64,000 nucleotides of DNA from an uncultured Anaerolineales bacterium (GCA_964481465.1 CAYZTL010000016.1:13553-77552); one strand, 5' to 3'; shown: positions 417 to 13,859, numbered from the stretch's first letter. Numbers and translations: made by a program. Notes: generated by a model from the letters alone, not told the origin.

Positions 417-1340
417 TTACGGATTACCACCCATTCCACAATTGGGTGCGATATGCAGGGTCGCCACAAGGGCATCCAGCTCGAGCAGGGAGGGCACGAA
501 ACTCTCTGGCAGCTGCCCGTCCAGCTGAGCTGCTGTATTGTCGATGTATGTCTCCCAATTATCGTAAAAGGCCTGATCCAGGGTGACAGTACTTGTATCC
601 GGTAAAGAAGGGTGGGAAACGGGCATGATCACGCTTATATAGTAAGCATTATCATCCGTCAAACCCTGGAAGGTGTAGAACATCTCCGGATATCCAATGG
701 GCACCGCTGCCTGCCCATACTGAGAGATATACCGCACCCCGCTCCCGTTTTGGAAATCAAGGTACGCCTCCTGGGCGGCAAAATACTGCATGGCGTTAAA
801 GAAATGGGATACATAAACCTCTGGATCCGCCGGCTGGTTGTCGATGGTGGTCCGGAGATTATCTAACCGCGTCGCCACGTTATCATTCACGTTACGGAAG
901 TCTTGAACGGAAAAGACGCGAATCTGGGGCTCATGGAATGTATTGGAGAGCGGGTAATCGCCGAAAAGGAAGCGAATGTGGTCCGGCGACTGCCAGGGCG
1001 ATTGGGGGTCCATCATCCCAGCAACCTGTTCTATACTGACGGAGCCGATCCAGGACTCATCAAAGGAAAAGCAGATATTTTGATAGACAATGTCCGGCGG
1101 TATTGGAGTTTCCGTAGGTTCCGAGGTGAAGGTGGGAGATGGCTGAGGGGTCTCCGCAGGTTCCGTTGGCTCTTCTTCAACCGCTTGAGCGGTGAGGGTT
1201 TGGGCAACTTTGGTCTGAACAGCACCCTCCGTATCCCCTCCATCATCGTCTTCCTGGGGCATCGAGCAGGCCAGTGAGACAGCAAATAAGACTAAGATAA
1301 CCAAGAGCAAGCGTTGGGTTGATTGGTGTTTTGATTTCAA
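417..1340 (-). CDS. Hypothetical lipoprotein (unknown function)
   Basis: 307-aa ORF with a TTG start preceded by GGGAGG. N-terminus MKSKHQSTQRLLLVILVLFAVSLAC has a lipobox-like SLAC, followed by an acidic Pro/Thr/Glu linker. I recognise no family motif. Confidence 0.7.
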   Translation of the reverse strand: MKSKHQSTQRLLLVILVLFAVSLACSMPQEDDDGGDTEGAVQTKVAQTLTAQAVEEEPTEPAETPQPSPTFTSEPTETPIPPDIVYQNICFSFDESWIGSVSIEQVAGMMDPQSPWQSPDHIRFLFGDYPLSNTFHEPQIRVFSVQDFRNVNDNVATRLDNLRTTIDNQPADPEVYVSHFFNAMQYFAAQEAYLDFQNGSGVRYISQYGQAAVPIGYPEMFYTFQGLTDDNAYYISVIMPVSHPSLPDTSTVTLDQAFYDNWETYIDNTAAQLDGQLPESFVPSLLELDALVATLHIAPNCGMGGNP

Positions 1341-1423: not shown

Positions 1424-1485
1424 ATTGGAGGAGTGGGATTGGATGGATCTGTATTGATGTATCCGCATCCAGATGAAGCCGCAGC

Positions 1486-1896
1486 TTAGACATGTTCTGC
1501 TTCTAATTCTTCTTCGCGCTCAATGGCTTCATCTATTTCCACTTGATGGGCCTTATAGAAAGCTAAGGCCTCAGAAACCTGGTTCCTGTGTAGAGCATAT
1601 TCTTCAGCAATCGTCTCCTGGGATTGATTCCAATGGCGATTGGCAACAACAACTGTTTGCACTCGGACTCCGGTTCCCCGGATCACCGGCGTAGGTACGC
1701 CCGAAGCGCCCCTCCGATAGGTAATATGCGGGTAATCGGGATCATCTAAGTTCTGCCTCAGCTCCCCGACTTTTTCCGCAACTGACCACATGATAAATTG
1801 GTTCAAAGAGACCTTTTGCTTTGCAGCCCATTCCTCGGCCTCTTTTTTCAGCTGTTTAGGTAAATTTAGTGGGTAACGCGCCATGCTTCCCTCCAA
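1486..1896 (-). CDS. Antitoxin-like fusion: N-terminal HicB/Arc-type ribbon-helix-helix plus C-terminal DUF433
   Basis: N-terminus YPLNLPKQLKKEAEEWAAKQKVSLNQFIMWSVAEKV is typical of RHH antitoxins. C-terminus GVPTPVIRGTGVRVQTVVVA...SQETIAEEYALHRNQVSEALAFYKAHQVEIDEAI matches the DUF433 pattern (G.P.I.GT..RV...V......eeIaeeY.L...qV.eAL.FY). Confidence 0.7.
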   Translation of the reverse strand: MEGSMARYPLNLPKQLKKEAEEWAAKQKVSLNQFIMWSVAEKVGELRQNLDDPDYPHITYRRGASGVPTPVIRGTGVRVQTVVVANRHWNQSQETIAEEYALHRNQVSEALAFYKAHQVEIDEAIEREEELEAEHV

Positions 1897-1964
1897 AAAT
1901 TAACATCACATATAACATCATATATGATGTATGTATGTTTCTCAAGTTTAGTAATTTATTTGCC

Positions 1965-1990
1965 GGCGGTCCCCACCGCCATGATTTTTT
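1965..1990 (+). terminator. Orphan terminator-like hairpin on the plus strand
   Basis: GGCGGT-cccc-ACCGCC followed by ATGATTTTTTG. No plus-strand gene lies upstream, so its function is unknown. Confidence 0.3.
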
Positions 1991-2115
1991 GTTTATCTCG
2001 TAGATGGCAATAAGGGTTGCACCATTAACTCTTAACTTGATCAATGGCTGGCTATGTTTGCTTGGAGAAATTTAGGTAAAAAATCCCCTCTTCTGACCCC
2101 CTATTCCATAAAATT

Positions 2116-2229
2116 TTACTTATTCTTGCGTTCTTCTTTCCGGTGTTTAAGATAACGCGAAATCCGCATTCCGACAAATGCACCAACAGATCCTGCGATT
2201 ACTAAAATGAGGAAAAGAGACCAATCCAT
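2116..2229 (-). CDS. 37-aa single-TM peptide (MDWSLFLILVIAGSVGAFVGMRISRYLKHRKEERKNK)
   Basis: Hand-translated; too short for the ORF track. Its ATG abuts the TAG stop of ORF 2230..2853 (TAGATG). Hydrophobic helix followed by a basic tail. The only evidence is the ORF and this coupling geometry. Confidence 0.4.
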   Translation of the reverse strand: MDWSLFLILVIAGSVGAFVGMRISRYLKHRKEERKNK

Positions 2230-2853
2230 CTATGTTGATCCTTTGGTTTCTGTTCTTGACCCGGCCCAAGGACGATCAGGCCAGAGCTGATAAGCAAATG
2301 CAAATGCAAACCCAATGGATAATATTATAAACAATGGACCGACTACTAAATATAATCCATTTAATCCTTGAAAACGAGAAGTAAACATCCCTAAATTGGC
2401 ACCTAATGCCCCAGCCACTGGGGCTAAGCTGATGGACAAACCAAGGAGGATCTTTCCCAAGCGGGTTTCCGGCGCTGTCTGTTCCCTCCAAAGCACTTTT
2501 GAAATTTCAGGATATAAAGCCGGCAAGGTCCACGCAAAAAGGTATCCCCCTATCATAGGATAAAGCCAAATGGTTGGTAAGGCATATACCCACGCACGGA
2601 TTCCAATGCTTAATGTTTGCATAGACCATAACGTGCTAACGGTAAATTTTGAAGCCCAATTATAAACCTTCCAATTCCATATTCCAACTAAAATTCCTAC
2701 TAATCCGGTAACAGAACCAAATATGATAGACATTAGATTTTGAGGTGGCAATATAATAATAATCAGCCCAAATCCCCCGAAGCCTAATAACCCAGCTCCG
2801 AGAATCTTCCAAAATGGCCAATCTGCGTGGGGGTGCTTTTGACTCTTATACAT
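2230..2853 (-). CDS. Polytopic membrane protein (~6 TM), unknown family
   Basis: 207-aa ORF with successive hydrophobic segments (LGAGLLGFGGFGLIIIIL, IIFGSVTGLVGILVGIW, etc.). AT-rich like the 3' end of the upstream gene. Confidence 0.7.
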   Translation of the reverse strand: MYKSQKHPHADWPFWKILGAGLLGFGGFGLIIIILPPQNLMSIIFGSVTGLVGILVGIWNWKVYNWASKFTVSTLWSMQTLSIGIRAWVYALPTIWLYPMIGGYLFAWTLPALYPEISKVLWREQTAPETRLGKILLGLSISLAPVAGALGANLGMFTSRFQGLNGLYLVVGPLFIILSIGFAFAFAYQLWPDRPWAGSRTETKGST

Positions 2854-2931
2854 TAGTTATCAACCGAATAGAGTTTTTCTTAAAAAACAGAAAATAAATT
2901 TATCCATATATCGTAATTAGAAAAAACCTGT

Positions 2932-5598
2932 TTATCCACCTCCAAACAAACTACTTACAAAGCTACCAACTGTTTCAGTTGTATTCTTGATTTTCTGGTT
3001 AACAATATTATTCACTTTTTCGATCGATTCATTTGTATTTTTATTAAACGATTTTGCCATTTCTTTCACTTTATCTTTAGCTCTTTGGCTGAGAACATTT
3101 CCAATAACTTTGGCATTGTCTGCTATACCCTTCCAAGCTTTTGCTCCATTCACAACCTTCCTAGACAGTTTTTGAACTCCAACCTCAGCGGCATCAACCG
3201 CTTTGTTCACCTTCTTTTTCAGATAATCTCCAGCTCCCATGAAATCCAGAGCACCTCCGATAAATGTTCCTGCGCCAGCCGTGAATCCAATTGCTCCCCA
3301 CACGGGTAATGTTAGACCAAAAAATGCTGTTAACCCTGCAATAAAAGCCGCCGCAACCAAACCAGTGCCAACAGCCATCACCGTATCTACAGCAGAAGAT
3401 ACTGCAAATTCTTGACTGGCAATTCCCTTGTCTTTGTTCTTACCAAATCCATAATCGATCACATTTCCCGCTAGTGAGGTTACACCTGCTGTGATCCATG
3501 AACCTTTCGACATGGCCCCTGATACTAAATGTCGACCTGTAATTCCTGTAATTGTGGAAGAATTATATCTCGTCCCTTTAAAACCATATTTTTGGAGAAA
3601 ACCACGCCTTGTTCCTATCGGTAAAGAGGGTGCACTGACTGAAACATGACCGGATTTCAGCGTATTAAAGGCCACAGCACGGGCTGTAAGAGCGTTTTTT
3701 ATAGTTTTTACCCAACGTAGTCCTCGCGACACCCATTTACCTTCCAATTCAGGAGTATCTTTGTTCGTGGTTCCAAAGCTCTCCGGATACGGTGTCGCGT
3801 AAGGTTTAGGCATCGGTACCGGCATTGGCCCCGGGGTGGGCGTGGGTGTTGAGGGGGGCGGAGGCGTTTCCTTCCAGCCGGTCTGGACCTTGACGAACTC
3901 GTAGTTGGGCACATTCTCGATCACGATCTCCGTGCCCACCTGGACGCGCTCCTCCTCATATACAGGCACACTCTCGTGGACCGTCTTCCACCCTTCCTGA
4001 AAAGTCCGGAAATCATACACCGGCACGATCTCGTTGACCGTGCGGTAGCCGTCCTGGACCCGCCTTGTCTCAAAGACGGGCACCTTCTTCGTCCTCGTCT
4101 CCACCGCCGTGTAGGGCACAACTCTCGTCCGCTTGACCCGCTTCATCTCCGTCTTCGTCTTCCATCCTACACACACTTTGCGCTTGCCGTACACGGGGAC
4201 ACGCTTCCAGCGGTAGGTCGGCTGCAGGGTCAACCGCCCGTATTTGCGGACCAGCTTCCAGTCCTTGACCCGCTTGTGCTTGTAGTATTTGACGTACTTC
4301 CGCGTGCGGTAGACAGGCACCCTCCTGGTCTCCTTCTTCCACTCATAATAAGGCTCTGTGCGGTAGCGGGTGACCTTGACCTTCTCCGTCACCTTCTTCG
4401 TCCCCACCCGCACCCGCTTCTCCACATACCGCGGCACCCGCCTGGTGACCCTCTTCATCCCCACCTGGATCTTCCTGGTGACGTAGTTGGGCACCCGCCT
4501 GGTGACGACCTTGTACCCCGTCTTGACCTGCTTCGTCTCATAGACAGGGACTTCCTTCTCCACCGTCTTATACCCCCGCTGGACCGCTTTGTACCCATAG
4601 ACCGGCTCGCGGCAAGTGCCCCCTGCCGGGGATCCAGCGCCCAGCCTGCCCCCCAGACCCATCCGACGGGGATCGGACAGCGTCTTGCGTAAGGCGTAAT
4701 AGGTCTCTTTGAGATCCTCCCGGGCCGATTCCCGCCCCACCAGCACGGCCATCATCGACAGGGCCCCGAACAAGCCCATCCAGGGCAGCATGGGGTCCGC
4801 CGCCGCAGGGAGAGGAGATTCCCGGACTACCAACCCTGAATTTCCCTGCAAGCCCCACTGTCTGAGGAATTCAGAAGTGGGCACCGTCCGCGCCCCAAAA
4901 GTGGGGTCGTTGTAGCTCACCCACCCCCCGTCCTCCGAGATCCCGGTCACGGTCACGAAGTGGCCGGGCTTCCCCTGGCCGTTGGCGCCCAGGGCGACCA
5001 CCACAGGGCGACCCTGCTCCAGCTGCTCCCGCAGCTGCGCCAGGGTCCAGCCATGGAACGCCGATGTCCCCCGGTACCCGTGCTCCCGGGCGACGTAGGC
5101 CAGCTCCTCCACACCGGTGCCAACCTCATAGAGCAGACCCGCTTTTCGCAGATCCGCAACCAGGGCAGCGGTCGAAGGAGCTGACCCGCCTTCTCCCCCT
5201 AACTCCGCGTACTCCAGCGCCATCCCCAGGGCCGCCGCCCCGCAGGTCACCTCCCCCGCCTCCTGGTAGCGCTGGGGTACAGCCAGGCTGGGATCAAGGA
5301 GCGTTTTCCTTTCCACCTTCTGGGGAACTACTTCGACGTAATGAGGTGGTTCTGCCAAGAATGGTATGTCGATATCCAAACCTGTGAGCATGCCGGAGGG
5401 GTCGATCTCCCCCTTATCCCCCTCCGACAGCGTCACACGTGTATTTATCCCCACGATCGGCGGCGGCTTCACCGGTTCCGGATCCGACGGCACCTCCCCT
5501 TCTGCATGCACCCGCAGCGGGAAGGCTGCGATCACCAGCAGCAGGGCCAGCACTGCGAGCGCGGCCAGGGCTCGGTACATATTCGCTTGCCTGTTCAT
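2932..5598 (-). CDS. Mosaic membrane/secreted protein: signal peptide, C39-like (papain-fold) peptidase domain, TM, basic ~19-aa repeats, Pro/Thr linker, Gly-rich hydrophobic C-terminal module
   Basis: 888-aa ORF. Signal ...LRVHA/EGE. Peptidase motifs VTCGAAALGMALEY, GHFVTVTG, YNDP. TM LPWMGLFGALSMMAVLVG. See the repeat feature. C-terminal hairpin AVGTGLVAAAFIAGLTAFFGLTLPVWGAIGFTAGAGTFIGG. Confidence 0.8.
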   Translation of the reverse strand: MNRQANMYRALAALAVLALLLVIAAFPLRVHAEGEVPSDPEPVKPPPIVGINTRVTLSEGDKGEIDPSGMLTGLDIDIPFLAEPPHYVEVVPQKVERKTLLDPSLAVPQRYQEAGEVTCGAAALGMALEYAELGGEGGSAPSTAALVADLRKAGLLYEVGTGVEELAYVAREHGYRGTSAFHGWTLAQLREQLEQGRPVVVALGANGQGKPGHFVTVTGISEDGGWVSYNDPTFGARTVPTSEFLRQWGLQGNSGLVVRESPLPAAADPMLPWMGLFGALSMMAVLVGRESAREDLKETYYALRKTLSDPRRMGLGGRLGAGSPAGGTCREPVYGYKAVQRGYKTVEKEVPVYETKQVKTGYKVVTRRVPNYVTRKIQVGMKRVTRRVPRYVEKRVRVGTKKVTEKVKVTRYRTEPYYEWKKETRRVPVYRTRKYVKYYKHKRVKDWKLVRKYGRLTLQPTYRWKRVPVYGKRKVCVGWKTKTEMKRVKRTRVVPYTAVETRTKKVPVFETRRVQDGYRTVNEIVPVYDFRTFQEGWKTVHESVPVYEEERVQVGTEIVIENVPNYEFVKVQTGWKETPPPPSTPTPTPGPMPVPMPKPYATPYPESFGTTNKDTPELEGKWVSRGLRWVKTIKNALTARAVAFNTLKSGHVSVSAPSLPIGTRRGFLQKYGFKGTRYNSSTITGITGRHLVSGAMSKGSWITAGVTSLAGNVIDYGFGKNKDKGIASQEFAVSSAVDTVMAVGTGLVAAAFIAGLTAFFGLTLPVWGAIGFTAGAGTFIGGALDFMGAGDYLKKKVNKAVDAAEVGVQKLSRKVVNGAKAWKGIADNAKVIGNVLSQRAKDKVKEMAKSFNKNTNESIEKVNNIVNQKIKNTTETVGSFVSSLFGGG
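3868..4608 (-). repeat. About 12 in-frame copies of a 19-21-aa V-P-x-Y ... G-(Y/W)-K repeat inside ORF 2932..5598
   Basis: Examples: VPVYETKQVKTGYKVVTRR / VPNYVTRKIQVGMKRVTRR / VPRYVEKRVRVGTKKVTEK ... VPVYDFRTFQEGWKTVHES / VPVYEEERVQVGTEIVIEN / VPNYEFVKVQTGWKE. Confidence 0.75.
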
Positions 5599-9356: not shown

Positions 9357-12300
9357 TCAAGGACAGCTGCCGAACGGTGTGCCGTTCACCTTCACACCGG
9401 GCGAGAAGAGCACGCCCTCGATGACTTCCCCGTGCCTTAGGAAGGATCCGAAGAGGTCCGGGTACCTGGTCAGGGATTGGTCGTGATCCGCTTCAGAACC
9501 ATAGGCATAATAAGCGCGCACCCTCCCCTCGTCATCAAAAAGGATAACGGTGTCGCCCCTGTTGTTCAAACCCAGGGAGCCCGCGGTTTGGACCAAGCTC
9601 CCGCCAAAGGCTCCACTCGGCGATCCACCCCCAAAGACGACCACAGCGCAGCCGTCGGAAAGGTGCGTCCCGGGGGAGAAGGTGTGCCTTCTCCTTGTCT
9701 CATCATGGACCGTCCACCCGCTGATGTCGAGCACACCCCCGCTGATATTGACAAATTCCAAGAATTCATCATCGTCGCTGTGTCTCGTCCCATCCCCATT
9801 GGCATCCCCGTCTTCCGGGTGGGGGTCCGCATGGATTTCATTAAGGAGGATGACCACCGGCAGCGGCGTAGGGGTCGGGGTAAAACCCGGACTTGGGGTT
9901 GCGGTCACCGTCGTCGTGGAAGATGACGTCGCGCTGGGGGTCACGGATGGGACCGGGACCAATGTAGGCGACGGTGTCGTCGTGGGAGCCGACGTCGCGC
10001 TGGGGGTCACGGATGGGACCGGGACCAATGTAGGAGACGGTGTCGGGGTAAAGGTCGGTGTAGAGGTCGGCGTGGGGGTGGATGGCGGCGATGGCGTCGG
10101 GGTGAATGTGGATGTCAGCGAGGGTGTCGGAGTCCTCGTATTCGTAGGCGTCGGTGAGCATGTCGGGGTACGGGCAGGGGTTGGCGTGCTCCACACCAAT
10201 TGGCCCGGGGACGGGTGATCCTGCTCCCGCCAATCCTCCGCGCTGTCATGATCCGCCTGGGGAGGAAAGCGCTCCAGGGAATGCCCCTCCCCTGGCTTCT
10301 TGACCGGGGGTTGAAACGCCCCGTAGTCTGAATCCCCATAGGCTACAGCATCCACCACCCGGTCTCCCCCATCCAGGAGCAGGACCTCATCCCCCCGATT
10401 TCGCAGCTCAACGCTCCATGTGGACCAAGCTGCATACTTCTCCAAATCGGGCACATTCGCCATGGTGTCTTTGATCTCAAAATCAGGCAACCGCCCATAC
10501 TGGGAAGCAAAGGAGCTGCCCTGGTTGGCAACCACGATCACCTCTCCGGAGTGGATCACCGCGGTTGAGGGGAAGAGGACCATCCCTTCCCGGTCTCCCG
10601 GGACAGATGCATCCCCCACCTTCACTCCCCTCAAGGAAATCGAGTAAGCCTGAGGGTTGTAAATTTCGATCCATTCCCCGGCTGGTTCCGGCGCATCCGG
10701 ATTGGGGAGCACCTCGCTGATCAAGAGCCGGACCGGAGCTGGCGTCGGCGTGTGGGTGGGGGTCCAGGTTGAGGTTGGGGTAGCGGTCGGCGTCGGGGTT
10801 CGCGTGGGCTGGGGCGTGGGGGTGGGATGGTCCAAGCGCCCCGGGGAGGGGTTCTCACTCACCCGCCAATCGGACGCACTTCCCGTATCCCTGCCCGGAG
10901 GATAGCGCTGGAGGGATTTCCCCTCCCCCGCTTTCTTGGCGGGAGGTTGAAAGGCACTGTAGCCCGAATCCCCATAGGCCAGATCGTCCACCACCCGATC
11001 CCCAGGACCCAGAATCAGGACTTCGTCGCCCCCGTTCCGCAAACGCAGGCTGCCTGCCGCCCAGGTCCCATACTTGATGAGATCCGGCACGCCAGCATGG
11101 GTTGATTGACATTCATAATCAGGCAAAGAACCGTAAGCGCTCTGAAAAGCGGAAGCCCGGTTGGCAACCACGATCACCTCTCCCGGCCCAAGGCTGGCTC
11201 CCGGCGGGAAGGCCATCATCCCTTCCGGATCCCCCCTACCCGATGCGTCCCCGATTTTGACCTGACCTAGGGGGACGGGATGGGCGTTGGGATTGAACAC
11301 TTCCACCCATTCCCCATCCGGCTCCGGTCCCAAAGGATCAGCCAAGACTTCACTGATCAGCAAATGGATCGGGGCTGGCGTCGACGTCGGCCCGGGGGGT
11401 GAGGGGGAAGGGGTAAGGGTTGGCGTCGGCGTCAGCGTGGGCGTTGGGGTGGGTGTGGATGTGCTGAGATCTAATCGGCCCGGAGAGGGATTCCCCTTCT
11501 CCCGCCAATCCCTGGCTCGATTTTTATCGCGGTGGGGAGGGTACCGTTCCAGAGAATGACCCTGAGAGGGCGCGGGCACGGGCGGTTGGAAGGGTTCCCA
11601 ATCCGAATTTCCATAAGAAACGCTGTCCACCACCCGGTCTTCCCAATCCAAAAGCAGGATTTCATCCCCCCGGTTGCTCAAGCTCACTTGAGAACTCCCC
11701 CAGCGGAGATAGGGCCACATATCCTGGACCCGGGGAAGGCTGTTTTGGATTTCAAAATCCGGGTAGAAGCCGTAGGTACGATAAAAGGTATCCCCATGGT
11801 TGGCAATGACCAGCACCTCTCCCCGTTCTATGTAATATCCGGGCGGAAAAAGGAGCATCCCCTCACGATCATTGGGGCTCTCCGCATCTCCCAATTTGTA
11901 ATGGGTCAGCAGGCGATCATATTTCTCCGGGTTGTATATTTCGATCCATTCCCCTTCCGGCTCTTCCCCTGCTGGATTGGACATGAACTCCGAAATCAGC
12001 AGGACCGCGGGGTACGGTGTCGGCGACGGGGAGGGGGTGAGCGTCGCAGTGGGGCTGGGCGTATGGGTAGGCGACCCCTCTGGAGGGAAAACTGTCGAGG
12101 GGAGCAGGGGATTGGGGCGCGGGTCCGGATGCTGAGGATCCCAAACCTGACCACTCCAGCGGGTGTAGACCAGTAGGGGGTCATGGTCCGATGTACGGTA
12201 CAGAATGGTGTGGTCAGAACCATAGGAATGGGGGTAGTCCGCATTGATATGCAGGGGCAGGGTTTGGAACTCGTCTGCAAGGGCATCGTTTACCCATACA

Positions 12301-13859
12301 TAATCCCTGATACCGGGTACGCCGTAATCCAGGTAGGTATAGCGATCCTCTAGGGCTACCTCTTCCAGGAGGTTGTGCAAACCCCGATCAAGCAGCGTTT
12401 TCACCGCGGGGGAATCTGGACCAGTATTGAGAGACCCGATGATGATCAACCCTGCCCGATCCGCCTTCCCCGCCAAATCCGCCACAAACTGAGTCTGGGC
12501 CAGGCGGCGGGTCCGGGTACCCTCGTCGGCGTCCGAGCCCTCCAGACAGCGGATGATGATCAACAGATAAGGATCCTTATCCTCGCCGTATTCCAGCTCC
12601 ACCCACAAAGGTGGTTGAGAAAACAAACGGTTCCCATCCGGTTTTCCGTCCCCATTTCGATCACAGGTAACTTCGTTCTCAGGAAGATCCCTCGACCCGT
12701 TTCCATCCGGACCCAAGCCATCCTGCAAAGATGTACATCCCTGGAGGAGCCGGGCTTCGCGGATCCGCACCCACTCCATATCATACAGGAGGGCAGCGTT
12801 CAACCCTCCGGGATGCGAACCTTCCACGAGCAAATAATCATACTCGGTTTGGATCTCAGGCCTGGAGGCCAATTCGTTTAAGAAAGATTCCCTGGTCACC
12901 CCCTGAAGAGCGACAAGGTCCGTTTCCCCCAAGCCGTTGCGGATGACCCGGACCATCTTTTCCAGCGTTTGGTTCCCTAGCTCCTCTCGAAGCGATATGT
13001 GCTCAGGATGTACAGGACCAGAAACGGCAGATGGCTGGCGTGGCAGGCGCACATGCGCCAAAGAAAACCCTCTCAGCTGAGGAGAAAGAGGGACACGATC
13101 GATTGCCCTTTCCACGTCCACCTTATCCGTGACCCGCAAGCAAAATCCCCTCTGAGTCTCTTCTAAAACCGCGATGATAAAGTTCAACTGGTCCCCGACC
13201 TTGAGAGAGCCTTCCGGGAACATTTCTCTTTCCCCGATCACACATAAAGGGGGCCAGTCCCGGGTCGCGACCCCGTGGATTCTCTCCCCTTCCTCAAGCG
13301 CCCCGGGCAGAAGCCAGGAGACGCCTTTTGCGTCTGTCGGCCCAGCGATGACCCCCCGCGGCAACCGGACCAGCATCCCTTCCCAGTTTTCAAGGCGAGG
13401 GTAAAGGTTCCCGCGGACGAATTGTTCAAGCAGATTGACAGGCTCCGGAAGCATATGCCCCACCGAAAGGATTTCCAATTCACCCTCCAAGGCTTCCAGG
13501 ACGGTCTGTCCATCCACTTCCCCTACCGCCCCTTTGACCCGGATTTCATCCCCCACTGAAAGGTTATCCGGGAGGTTATCCAGAGTGACGAAGAGCCCAT
13601 CCGAGGTCAGCAGGTGCGGATCGCAGCTTTCTTTTTCCAGGAAGAAACCGGTAGGCGCTGGATCTTCTTTCAGCGCATAGACCACCCCTTCCGTGACCAC
13701 CACCTCACCCTCGTAAGGGGAAGCAAACCCCCGGCCTTGGATCTCACAAATCGGGAGGACCGGTTCCGGAGCGGAACACCCCAGCACGGCACCTATCAAC
13801 CCTAAAAGGCATAGGACCCATACATCTTTCCCATACCCCCTCAAAGCGGCGGCGCGCAC
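9357..13859 (-). CDS. Lipoprotein-anchored extracellular nuclease (ExeM/NucH-like N-terminus plus endonuclease/exonuclease/phosphatase domain) with four lamin-tail domains
   Basis: GTG start with a GAGGTGGG RBS. Lipobox AVLGC. CEIQGRGFASPYEGEVVVTEGVV is the ExeM/NucH-type N-terminus. The EEP domain ends ...YRTSDHDPLLV. Four LTD units (LLISEFMSNPAGEEPEGEWIEIYNP..., LLISEVLADPLGPEPDGEWVEVFNP..., LLISEVLPNPDAPEPAGEWIEIYNP..., LLNEIHADPHP...EFLEFVN) are separated by Pro/Thr linkers. Confidence 0.85.
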   Translation of the reverse strand: MRAAALRGYGKDVWVLCLLGLIGAVLGCSAPEPVLPICEIQGRGFASPYEGEVVVTEGVVYALKEDPAPTGFFLEKESCDPHLLTSDGLFVTLDNLPDNLSVGDEIRVKGAVGEVDGQTVLEALEGELEILSVGHMLPEPVNLLEQFVRGNLYPRLENWEGMLVRLPRGVIAGPTDAKGVSWLLPGALEEGERIHGVATRDWPPLCVIGEREMFPEGSLKVGDQLNFIIAVLEETQRGFCLRVTDKVDVERAIDRVPLSPQLRGFSLAHVRLPRQPSAVSGPVHPEHISLREELGNQTLEKMVRVIRNGLGETDLVALQGVTRESFLNELASRPEIQTEYDYLLVEGSHPGGLNAALLYDMEWVRIREARLLQGCTSLQDGLGPDGNGSRDLPENEVTCDRNGDGKPDGNRLFSQPPLWVELEYGEDKDPYLLIIIRCLEGSDADEGTRTRRLAQTQFVADLAGKADRAGLIIIGSLNTGPDSPAVKTLLDRGLHNLLEEVALEDRYTYLDYGVPGIRDYVWVNDALADEFQTLPLHINADYPHSYGSDHTILYRTSDHDPLLVYTRWSGQVWDPQHPDPRPNPLLPSTVFPPEGSPTHTPSPTATLTPSPSPTPYPAVLLISEFMSNPAGEEPEGEWIEIYNPEKYDRLLTHYKLGDAESPNDREGMLLFPPGYYIERGEVLVIANHGDTFYRTYGFYPDFEIQNSLPRVQDMWPYLRWGSSQVSLSNRGDEILLLDWEDRVVDSVSYGNSDWEPFQPPVPAPSQGHSLERYPPHRDKNRARDWREKGNPSPGRLDLSTSTPTPTPTLTPTPTLTPSPSPPGPTSTPAPIHLLISEVLADPLGPEPDGEWVEVFNPNAHPVPLGQVKIGDASGRGDPEGMMAFPPGASLGPGEVIVVANRASAFQSAYGSLPDYECQSTHAGVPDLIKYGTWAAGSLRLRNGGDEVLILGPGDRVVDDLAYGDSGYSAFQPPAKKAGEGKSLQRYPPGRDTGSASDWRVSENPSPGRLDHPTPTPQPTRTPTPTATPTSTWTPTHTPTPAPVRLLISEVLPNPDAPEPAGEWIEIYNPQAYSISLRGVKVGDASVPGDREGMVLFPSTAVIHSGEVIVVANQGSSFASQYGRLPDFEIKDTMANVPDLEKYAAWSTWSVELRNRGDEVLLLDGGDRVVDAVAYGDSDYGAFQPPVKKPGEGHSLERFPPQADHDSAEDWREQDHPSPGQLVWSTPTPARTPTCSPTPTNTRTPTPSLTSTFTPTPSPPSTPTPTSTPTFTPTPSPTLVPVPSVTPSATSAPTTTPSPTLVPVPSVTPSATSSSTTTVTATPSPGFTPTPTPLPVVILLNEIHADPHPEDGDANGDGTRHSDDDEFLEFVNISGGVLDISGWTVHDETRRRHTFSPGTHLSDGCAVVVFGGGSPSGAFGGSLVQTAGSLGLNNRGDTVILFDDEGRVRAYYAYGSEADHDQSLTRYPDLFGSFLRHGEVIEGVLFSPGVKVNGTPFGSCP
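9925..10046. repeat. Tandem duplication, 66-bp period (22 aa SPTLVPVPSVTPSATS...), in the last Pro/Thr linker of the nuclease
   Basis: GACGTCGCGCTGGGGGTCACGGATGGGACCGGGACCAATGTAGG occurs at 9925 and again at 9991, followed by (C/A)GACGGTGTCG. Confidence 0.8.

Follow-up and report, generated by a model that had tools for sequence, protein, structure and literature searches.

At one end of a 64,000-nucleotide (nt) stretch of DNA from an uncultured Anaerolineales bacterium (GCA_964481465.1 CAYZTL010000016.1:13553-77552; the whole stretch is referred to here as the window), an open reading frame (ORF) for an 888-amino-acid (aa) protein is followed by two small ORFs for membrane proteins, which raises the question of whether the C-terminal end of the long protein and its two neighbors form a unit of their own. 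The original prediction, made by reading this DNA alone, was that the three parts are a toxin-immunity-like cassette that can be exchanged on a conserved N-terminal body. We found the three ORFs at the coordinates predicted, with the stop codon of the 207-aa ORF directly adjoining the start codon of the 37-aa ORF (TAG, then ATG) exactly as had been read, and the order of domains proposed for the 888-aa protein was borne out by Pfam, Kyte-Doolittle hydropathy, and repeat spacing. The region from about nt 3834 down to nt 2116 is probably a cassette of three parts, of the kind known from polymorphic toxin-immunity systems and attached to a conserved scaffold, in which a membrane-active effector would be paired with two neutralizing membrane proteins. 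The parts on which this reading depends are as follows.

2932..5598, minus strand: 888-aa ORF, a mosaic of signal peptide, peptidase, transmembrane (TM) segment, basic repeats, Pro/Thr linker, and C-terminal module
3742..3867, minus strand: Pro/Thr linker, aa 578-619, which holds the recombination junction
2935..3741, minus strand: putative C-terminal effector module, aa 620-887, with an N-terminal alpha/beta part, a conserved core, a hairpin, and a Lys-rich amphipathic tail
2230..2853, minus strand: 207-aa ORF, a polytopic membrane protein and candidate immunity protein
2116..2229, minus strand: 37-aa ORF, a single-TM peptide with a basic tail and candidate second immunity subunit

A database search showed that relatives of the 888-aa protein make up a family of 600- to 1000-aa proteins, and the record titles give their hosts as uncultured Chloroflexota, mostly Anaerolineales. 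When 119 family members were compared segment by segment using BLAST, the C39 peptidase domain matched 118 of them, the basic repeats matched 98, and the C-terminus (aa 633-888) matched 17, so the homologues are not colinear and the expected combination of a conserved N-terminal part with a variable C-terminus is present. The closest relative, P0002, has a body 97% identical to that of the window protein, with aa 1-448 identical and 20 mismatches in aa 449-562; its similarity ends after aa 588 (nt ~3832), at ...KETPPPPSTPTPT, and is followed by unrelated sequence. We also found a second, independent swap at the DNA level between contigs L060 (encoding P0121) and L012 (encoding P0005), which are 94.6% identical in the 390 nt that end with ...PPPPTATP and show no relation beyond. 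Past the linker, L060 carries a module of the window type and a gene of the 207-aa family, and L012 carries a distant variant of the module (hhalign probability 96%, E 1e-9) and a gene for a polytopic protein that has no detectable relation to the 207-aa family. P0124 has a third C-terminus on the body shared by P0121 and P0005. The P0002 and L060/L012 swaps are independent of each other, and in each of them nearly identical bodies part ways at the Pro/Thr linker.

The end of contig L058, which comes from an independent assembly, falls at the same place: the contig is 100% identical to the window and stops exactly at nt 3865, at the start of the linker. This pattern suggests a branch in the assembly graph, as expected if alternative C-termini coexist in the sample. 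Assemblies often break in genes of this family, with L059 ending about 80 codons further into the module and the L001, L003, and L004 contigs breaking within the conserved body; such breaks fit coexisting variants or paralogues that confuse the assembler.

Base composition also changes within the linker. In the 888-aa ORF, the maximum-likelihood change-point in G+C content at third codon positions (GC3) is at codon 596 (nt ~3810), 8 codons from the P0002 homology breakpoint, with a GC3 of 0.80 before and 0.32 after it (log-likelihood ratio 100). Total GC is 0.631 over positions 3811-5598 versus 0.409 over positions 1900-3810, the latter being the lowest-GC 1.9-kb block of the 64-kb window (median, 0.545). 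The 207-aa ORF has the lowest GC3 (0.38) of the 39 ORFs of at least 200 aa (mean, 0.66; standard deviation, 0.09), and the corresponding values are 0.37 for the 37-aa ORF and 0.31 for the C-terminal module. These measurements agree with the four G+C counts made earlier by hand (40, 39, 28, and 20 per 60 nt, all exact), with the step proposed near nt 3750, and with an AT-rich tract said to run from the linker through both small ORFs to about nt 1900. An origin of the AT-richness in a protein composition rich in Lys, Asn, and Ile was rejected, because the step is seen in GC3 and is thus not an amino acid effect. Low C-terminal GC3 values were also found in L005, L006, L012, and L013, across different C-terminal types.

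In every readable locus, a 207-aa gene lies directly downstream of the module. The encoded homologues are 57% identical to the window protein in L005, 43% in L007, 34% in L004, and 32% in L010, each with an abutting 37-aa homologue, and 34% in L008 and 40% in L014, where the 37-aa homologue is an overlapping ORF. Scanning species-representative genomes with a 207-aa profile returned five loci, all with at least part of the module upstream and four with a 37-aa homologue downstream (L018 shows none). Two of the loci, L016 and L018, are from Chloroflexia and hold module fragments only; they look frameshifted, and as metagenome-assembled genomes are prone to error frameshifts, they were not counted as pseudogenes. 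The same profile identified 37 metagenomic loci, with the module upstream in 22 of the 26 that have more than 400 nt of upstream sequence and the 37-aa peptide downstream in 24 of the 31 that have room for it. About 40 loci combine the module with the 207-aa protein and the 37-aa peptide, and their N-terminal bodies are of two unrelated kinds. Over 21 locus pairs, the identity of the module and that of the 207-aa protein are correlated (r = 0.89), and body identity is uncoupled from both, so that the module and its downstream ORFs are inherited and vary together, as had been proposed.

The second of the two bodies, found in L014, lacks the C39 domain and is built from a signal peptide, a Cys-rich domain, Ig-like repeats, a TM segment, a segment rich in Lys, Arg, and Glu, and a Pro/Thr linker. 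Examples of this scaffold include L014:231-3230 and proteins P0141, P0145, P0151, P0158, P0161, P0185, P0189, P0200, and P0224, with 'ADYLGPDRT' in the Cys-rich domain.

Hydropathy analysis of the 207-aa protein gave four strong and two moderate hydrophobic segments. The earlier estimate of about six TM segments is therefore plausible but not certain. We found no relative of the protein in Pfam or the PDB, and its family is small and unannotated.

Several related loci contain extra copies or remnants of the cassette. In L021, a full module is followed by three non-identical 207/37 pairs that are 31 to 59% identical among themselves, an internally deleted orphan C-terminal remnant, and a chimeric 37-aa-type peptide whose C-terminal half matches the tail of the P0005-type C-terminus. 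A second divergent 207-aa copy lies downstream in L029 (with its own 37-aa peptide), L033, and L052, and L024 has an orphan module tail; in L003, an IS256-like transposase (388 aa, 1476-2642, minus strand) separates the family gene from a displaced part made up of an L001-type C-terminal fragment and a homologue of the PD40 beta-propeller lipoprotein encoded downstream in L001. Orphan modules or immunity-like arrays are present in L003, L021, L024, L029, L033, L038, and L052, and in arrays the 37-aa peptides always occur alongside a 207-aa gene. Other family members end in a calpain-like protease, SH3_3, or PG_binding_1 C-terminus, each with a different downstream gene. Across the family, C-termini other than the window type have behind them genes for a TPR protein, a PD40 lipoprotein, an anchored protein of 152 aa, or a polytopic protein of another kind. 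We dropped a guess that P0115 has a C-terminal 3D domain, as Pfam gave no confirmation. One genome (CAZRUS...) has two paralogues that differ in their C-termini.

The observations above show a mosaic protein with a defined junction, three parts that are co-inherited and diverge together, two scaffolds, and orphan and immunity-like arrays, and the linker swaps, co-inheritance, co-divergence, and arrays together support the proposal of a swappable cassette. They also bear on a non-lethal reading, in which the variable hairpin module and its polytopic partner would bind one another within the membrane as determinants of identity, in the manner of IdsD and IdsE of Proteus, and would allow filamentous Chloroflexota to distinguish kin from non-kin. 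A variable membrane-hairpin module that diverges together with a cognate polytopic partner, the lack of a match between any family C-terminus and a known toxin family, and hosts that are mostly Anaerolineales, a filamentous group, are all consistent with such a role. However, the additional 207/37 pairs, which are divergent and have no corresponding module, fit stockpiled protection better than identity pairs, and other C-termini of the family look enzymatic, such as the calpain-like protease; we consider kin recognition unlikely.

In the toxin-immunity reading, the cassette would have been joined to its scaffold by recombination within the Pro/Thr linker, and the scaffold would be a type-I-like membrane protein, with a C39-like cysteine peptidase outside the cell, one TM segment, and basic repeats inside, that presents or processes the swappable effector. 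The Gly/Ala-rich hairpin of the effector would insert into a membrane and most likely dissipate the membrane potential. Neutralization of the hairpin would fall to the 207-aa protein and the 37-aa peptide, acting jointly in the bilayer, and both are presumably required for protection.

The module itself defines a new domain family, for which 226 representative clusters were found at 50% identity (E <= 1e-3). Its conserved core, GNxxDYGxG...EFxVSTxVD, is followed by a Gly/Ala-rich hydrophobic helical hairpin at nt ~3241-3414, with a Kyte-Doolittle peak at aa 731-770. An AlphaFold2 model made from a 56-sequence alignment had a mean predicted local distance difference test (pLDDT) score of 73.9 overall and 80 to 97 over residues 10-190 (an 11-sequence alignment gave 41). 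In the model, a helix, a small beta element, and a helical domain are seen, with the hairpin formed by H109-140 and H146-166 and a long low-confidence tail after it. Five residues of the hairpin (G124, G126, A130, G161, and G168) are invariant, with G157 close to invariant; the sequence carries GxxxG and GxxxA, with no extended (G/A/S)xxxGxxxG run demonstrated. The tail is highly variable in length, as it is lengthened in P0129, P0143, P0159, and P0170 by long tandem peptide repeats (LPKVSLPKVT... or QKVLNKVTTTIQQKVIQPA...).

To identify relatives of the module, we searched Pfam, NCBIfam, PADLOC, the PDB (by sequence profile and by Foldseek), and BFVD and found none; the Foldseek searches of the PDB and BFVD used the pLDDT 73.9 model and a threshold of E <= 0.001, and the NCBIfam and PADLOC matches were at chance level. 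The C-terminal region therefore matches no housekeeping family in these databases. A colicin-like reading of the module was dropped, as Pfam found no colicin pore-forming domain in it or its 56 relatives and neither PDB profiles nor Foldseek gave a match; an apolipoprotein-like reading was dropped because weak Apolipoprotein matches occurred in just 4 of the 56 members, all in the tail. Scanning genomes with the module alignment gave no matches, the patterns being too specific. Searches of viral contigs yielded nothing related to the module or to the 207-aa protein, which makes a phage lysis or superinfection-exclusion cassette unlikely.

The body that carries the module contains the following features.

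5503..5598, minus strand: Sec-type signal peptide or signal anchor, aa 1-32 (...LRVHA/EGE), by Kyte-Doolittle
4855..5283, minus strand: papain-like C39_2/C70-type cysteine peptidase domain, aa ~106-248, by Pfam and triad conservation
4735..4791, minus strand: hydrophobic segment MLPWMGLFGALSMMAVLVG, aa 270-288, predicted stop-transfer TM segment (Kyte-Doolittle 1.74)
4648..4659, minus strand: G-[ILV]-G-G motif, aa 314-317, candidate double-glycine processing site, by conservation
3868..4608, minus strand: basic repeat region, aa 331-577, with 19-aa units VPxYExxxVxxGxKxVxxx

Residues 10-28 form the strongest hydrophobic peak of the 888-aa protein (Kyte-Doolittle 2.81), with a basic N-flank and an AXA-like site after it, at which the signal peptide may be cleaved. 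In the peptidase domain, Pfam matches to Peptidase_C39_2 (PF13529, aa 106-232; 41.7 bits versus a cut-off of 24) and Peptidase_C70 (PF12385; 40.2 bits versus 19) are above threshold, PF03412 is slightly below its cut-off (21.8 versus 22 bits), no ATP-binding cassette (ABC) domain is found in the protein, and Cys119, His213, and Asp231 are invariant in all family members that have those columns. We found no significant PDB sequence match for this domain. The hydrophobic segment at aa 270-288 has an acidic N-side flank and a C-side flank with a net charge of +4, and P272 and W273 are kept in 110 to 111 of 120 members. The G-[ILV]-G-G motif that follows is conserved on a par with the catalytic triad (G314 in 119, G316 in 116, and G317 in 113 of 120 members). 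C39-type enzymes cleave after Gly-Gly, so the motif is a candidate site for cleavage by the peptidase, and a role of the peptidase in effector release is putative. In the repeat region, VPxY is spaced at 19, 19, 39, 40, 39, 19, 19, and 19 residues, and the net charge is +41 over aa 331-600; no Pfam family matches the repeats, which might be a spacer or bind nucleic acid or the cell surface.

Because of the signal peptide, the acidic ectodomain, the hydrophobic segment with its basic C-flank, and the +41 repeats, the peptidase is predicted to be outside the cell and everything past aa 290 inside. The second scaffold has the same layout, with a stop-transfer TM segment followed by a charged segment (RRRKEEE). 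The competing view raised with the original prediction, that the repeats are cytoplasmic, is therefore reinforced by a second, unrelated body. Some other family members point to action outside the cytoplasm, as they have SH3_3 or PG_binding_1 C-termini, which we take to be cell-wall binding, or an exported lipoprotein partner. Either the aa 270-288 segment fails to stop transfer, or the effector uses a route outside the known ones.

Since both scaffolds are predicted to keep the module at the cytoplasmic side of the membrane, it could also be a self-directed suicide or defense effector. Here, the ectodomain would sense an attack on the envelope, for example by phage, the cytoplasmic hairpin would depolarize the cell's own membrane, and the 207/37 pair would be an in-membrane antitoxin or regulator, for which the TM hairpin in the effector and the foreign composition and swappability of the module would be suitable. 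Such a role appears quite unlikely, since PADLOC gives only a chance-level ZorA match (E 0.008), toxins that act between cells are the typical setting for orphan immunity arrays and displaced C-terminus/partner modules, the cell wall-type C-termini and exported lipoprotein partner point outside the cytoplasm, and relatives are lacking on viral contigs. It is very unlikely that the three proteins are ordinary subunits of a resident envelope machine with no role in conflict, their low GC coming from local mutation bias or expression level. A conserved gene order, membrane location of all three, and no detected toxin homology would fit such a complex. Against it, unrelated C-termini occur on near-identical bodies, just 17 of the 119 family members carry the module, some loci have divergent tandem copies or truncated remnants, the homology breakpoint and the GC3 step fall together, and the family is small and patchy.

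Several points weigh against the toxin-immunity reading that we prefer. By the positive-inside rule, the repeats and the module are predicted to lie in the producer's cytoplasm, which leaves export unaccounted for, and Pfam and NCBIfam identified no trafficking or secretion domain of the type V, VI, or VII secretion system (T5SS, T6SS, or T7SS), TcdB/TcaC, Photorhabdus virulence cassette (PVC), PrsW, or MuF kind; a Sec-type signal and the C39_2/C70 domain are all that was found. No family C-terminus matched a catalogued toxin family (such as a nuclease, deaminase, or ADP-ribosyltransferase), and Foldseek showed no likeness of the module to a colicin or other pore-forming fold. The 64-kb window holds a single cassette and zero orphan modules, the related sequences are mostly short metagenomic contigs, and both the toxicity of the module and the protection by the 207/37 pair are predictions.

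Among the polymorphic toxin systems that Zhang, Aravind, and colleagues defined are CdiA-CT/CdiI and Rhs (PMC3482391), and displaced C-terminus/partner modules and stockpiled partner genes are defining marks of contact-dependent inhibition (CDI), Rhs, and T7SS toxin loci (PMC3482391, PMC9484751). Like them, the loci analyzed here have a conserved N-terminal body, a sharp junction, swappable C-termini with cognate downstream genes, orphan C-terminus/immunity modules, immunity arrays, and a deviant cassette composition, and three of the four genomic hallmarks of polymorphic toxins were found, the fourth being a trafficking domain. They differ in a scaffold of signal peptide, C39-like peptidase, TM segment, and basic 19-aa repeats without a T5SS, T6SS, T7SS, Rhs, PrsW, or MuF element, and in C-termini outside the catalogued toxin families. 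The junction here is a low-complexity Pro/Thr linker, whereas CDI/Rhs-type systems have a VENN or PxxxxDPxGL motif. In the systems of Zhang et al., C39-like domains appear only as C-terminal toxin domains (Tox-PLC39; PMC3482391), while here the C39-like domain is in the N-terminal body.

By analogy, the closest experimental precedent for the proposed mechanism would be EsxX of Staphylococcus aureus, a glycine-zipper toxin against which the polytopic ExiC and ExiD protect only when coproduced (PMC12744356). As with EsxX/ExiC/ExiD and TspA/TsaI (PMC12744356, PMC7456083, PMC9484751), we predict a Gly-rich, membrane-acting C-terminal toxin with protection by membrane proteins, and the candidate immunity genes occur as orphans or as arrays of non-identical copies. 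Unlike EsxX, TelE, and TspA, the family has no LXG or WXG domain (by Pfam) and no T7SS, and we detected no sequence or fold similarity to EsxX or TspA. The partners here are a protein with about six TM segments and a 37-aa peptide, compared to two polytopic proteins, ExiC and ExiD, and the hairpin has GxxxG and GxxxA, compared to the demonstrated glycine zipper of EsxX.

In CDI ionophore systems, polymorphism extends from the toxins to the immunity proteins cognate to them (PMC11630599). The module shares with these toxins and with pore-forming colicins a predicted two-part C-terminal region, consisting of an N-terminal subdomain and a helical membrane-inserting part, and shares with CDI ionophores a polymorphic effector and cognate partner that covary, with ~30 to 60% identity among family members. 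In contrast to CDI ionophores and colicins, the host is a member of the Chloroflexota rather than the Proteobacteria and there are no recognizable receptor or translocation domains. As the module showed no similarity to colicin pore domains, the colicin parallel would be one of functional analogy only. Like C39, C39_2, and C70 peptidases (bacteriocin-processing double-glycine peptidases and AvrRpt2), the scaffold has Pfam matches above threshold, an invariant Cys-His-Asp triad, and a nearly invariant Gly-Gly in the same polypeptide. Unlike bacteriocin-processing C39 domains of the peptidase-containing ABC transporter (PCAT) type, its peptidase has no ABC transporter fused to it and follows a Sec signal, which predicts a location outside the cytoplasm, whereas a cytoplasmic location is predicted for the GG motif.

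Genes around the cassette were also analyzed. In the window, a 136-aa ORF just outside the cassette (1486-1896, minus strand) has a DUF433 domain (E 2.7e-8), a weak HicB-like N-terminus, and a GC3 of 0.48, about two standard deviations under the window mean. This gene and a 307-aa gene (417..1340) were rejected as cassette members because they are absent from the other loci among L001-L020. The AT-rich spacer below the 37-aa ORF contains a GC-rich perfect hairpin, GGCGGTCCCCACCGCC, at 1965-1980, followed by a T-run on the plus strand, where there is no upstream plus-strand gene to terminate; on the minus strand, we found no convincing terminator 3' of the 37-aa ORF. A 1500-aa ORF at 9357-13859 (minus strand) has an ordinary composition (GC3 0.66). 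Elsewhere, genes for Rce1-like (CPBP/Abi) intramembrane proteases, a family often tied to bacteriocin self-immunity, lie near family loci (L005:7840-8643; L013:1-1156 and 3308-4060; L019:7158-7979). Tad/Flp-type pilus genes adjoin the C39-family gene in three loci in three arrangements (L008/L009:1-4600; L010:9404-10708; L019:1-3765) and encode SAF/CpaB, a ParA-like protein, T2SSE, two T2SSF proteins, and TadE. This neighborhood could reflect conserved synteny or a functional link to delivery; the window contains no Tad-type pilus genes.

We found no description in the literature of this scaffold, of the effector domain, or of the partner families; the scaffold, the effector domain, and the two-protein membrane partner are previously undescribed, unannotated families. 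Tentatively, they may represent a new class of polymorphic effector, in which a membrane-displayed peptidase or Ig-repeat ectodomain carries a swappable effector on the cytoplasmic side and transfer occurs between adjacent Chloroflexota cells in a way unlike known secretion systems. In this class, the basic 19-aa repeats or the helix rich in Lys, Arg, and Glu would be a charged spacer between membrane and effector, and candidate routes of transfer would include processing at the GG motif, septal or vesicle transfer, and cooperation with neighboring Tad-type pilus machinery. Chloroflexota are abundant in sediments, sludge, and mats, and to our knowledge almost nothing is known about competition among them. 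The Pro/Thr linker, as a recombination junction, provides a simple rule for mining more cassettes. If the toxin reading is true, then either a new delivery route exists in these bacteria or the rules of membrane topology fail here.

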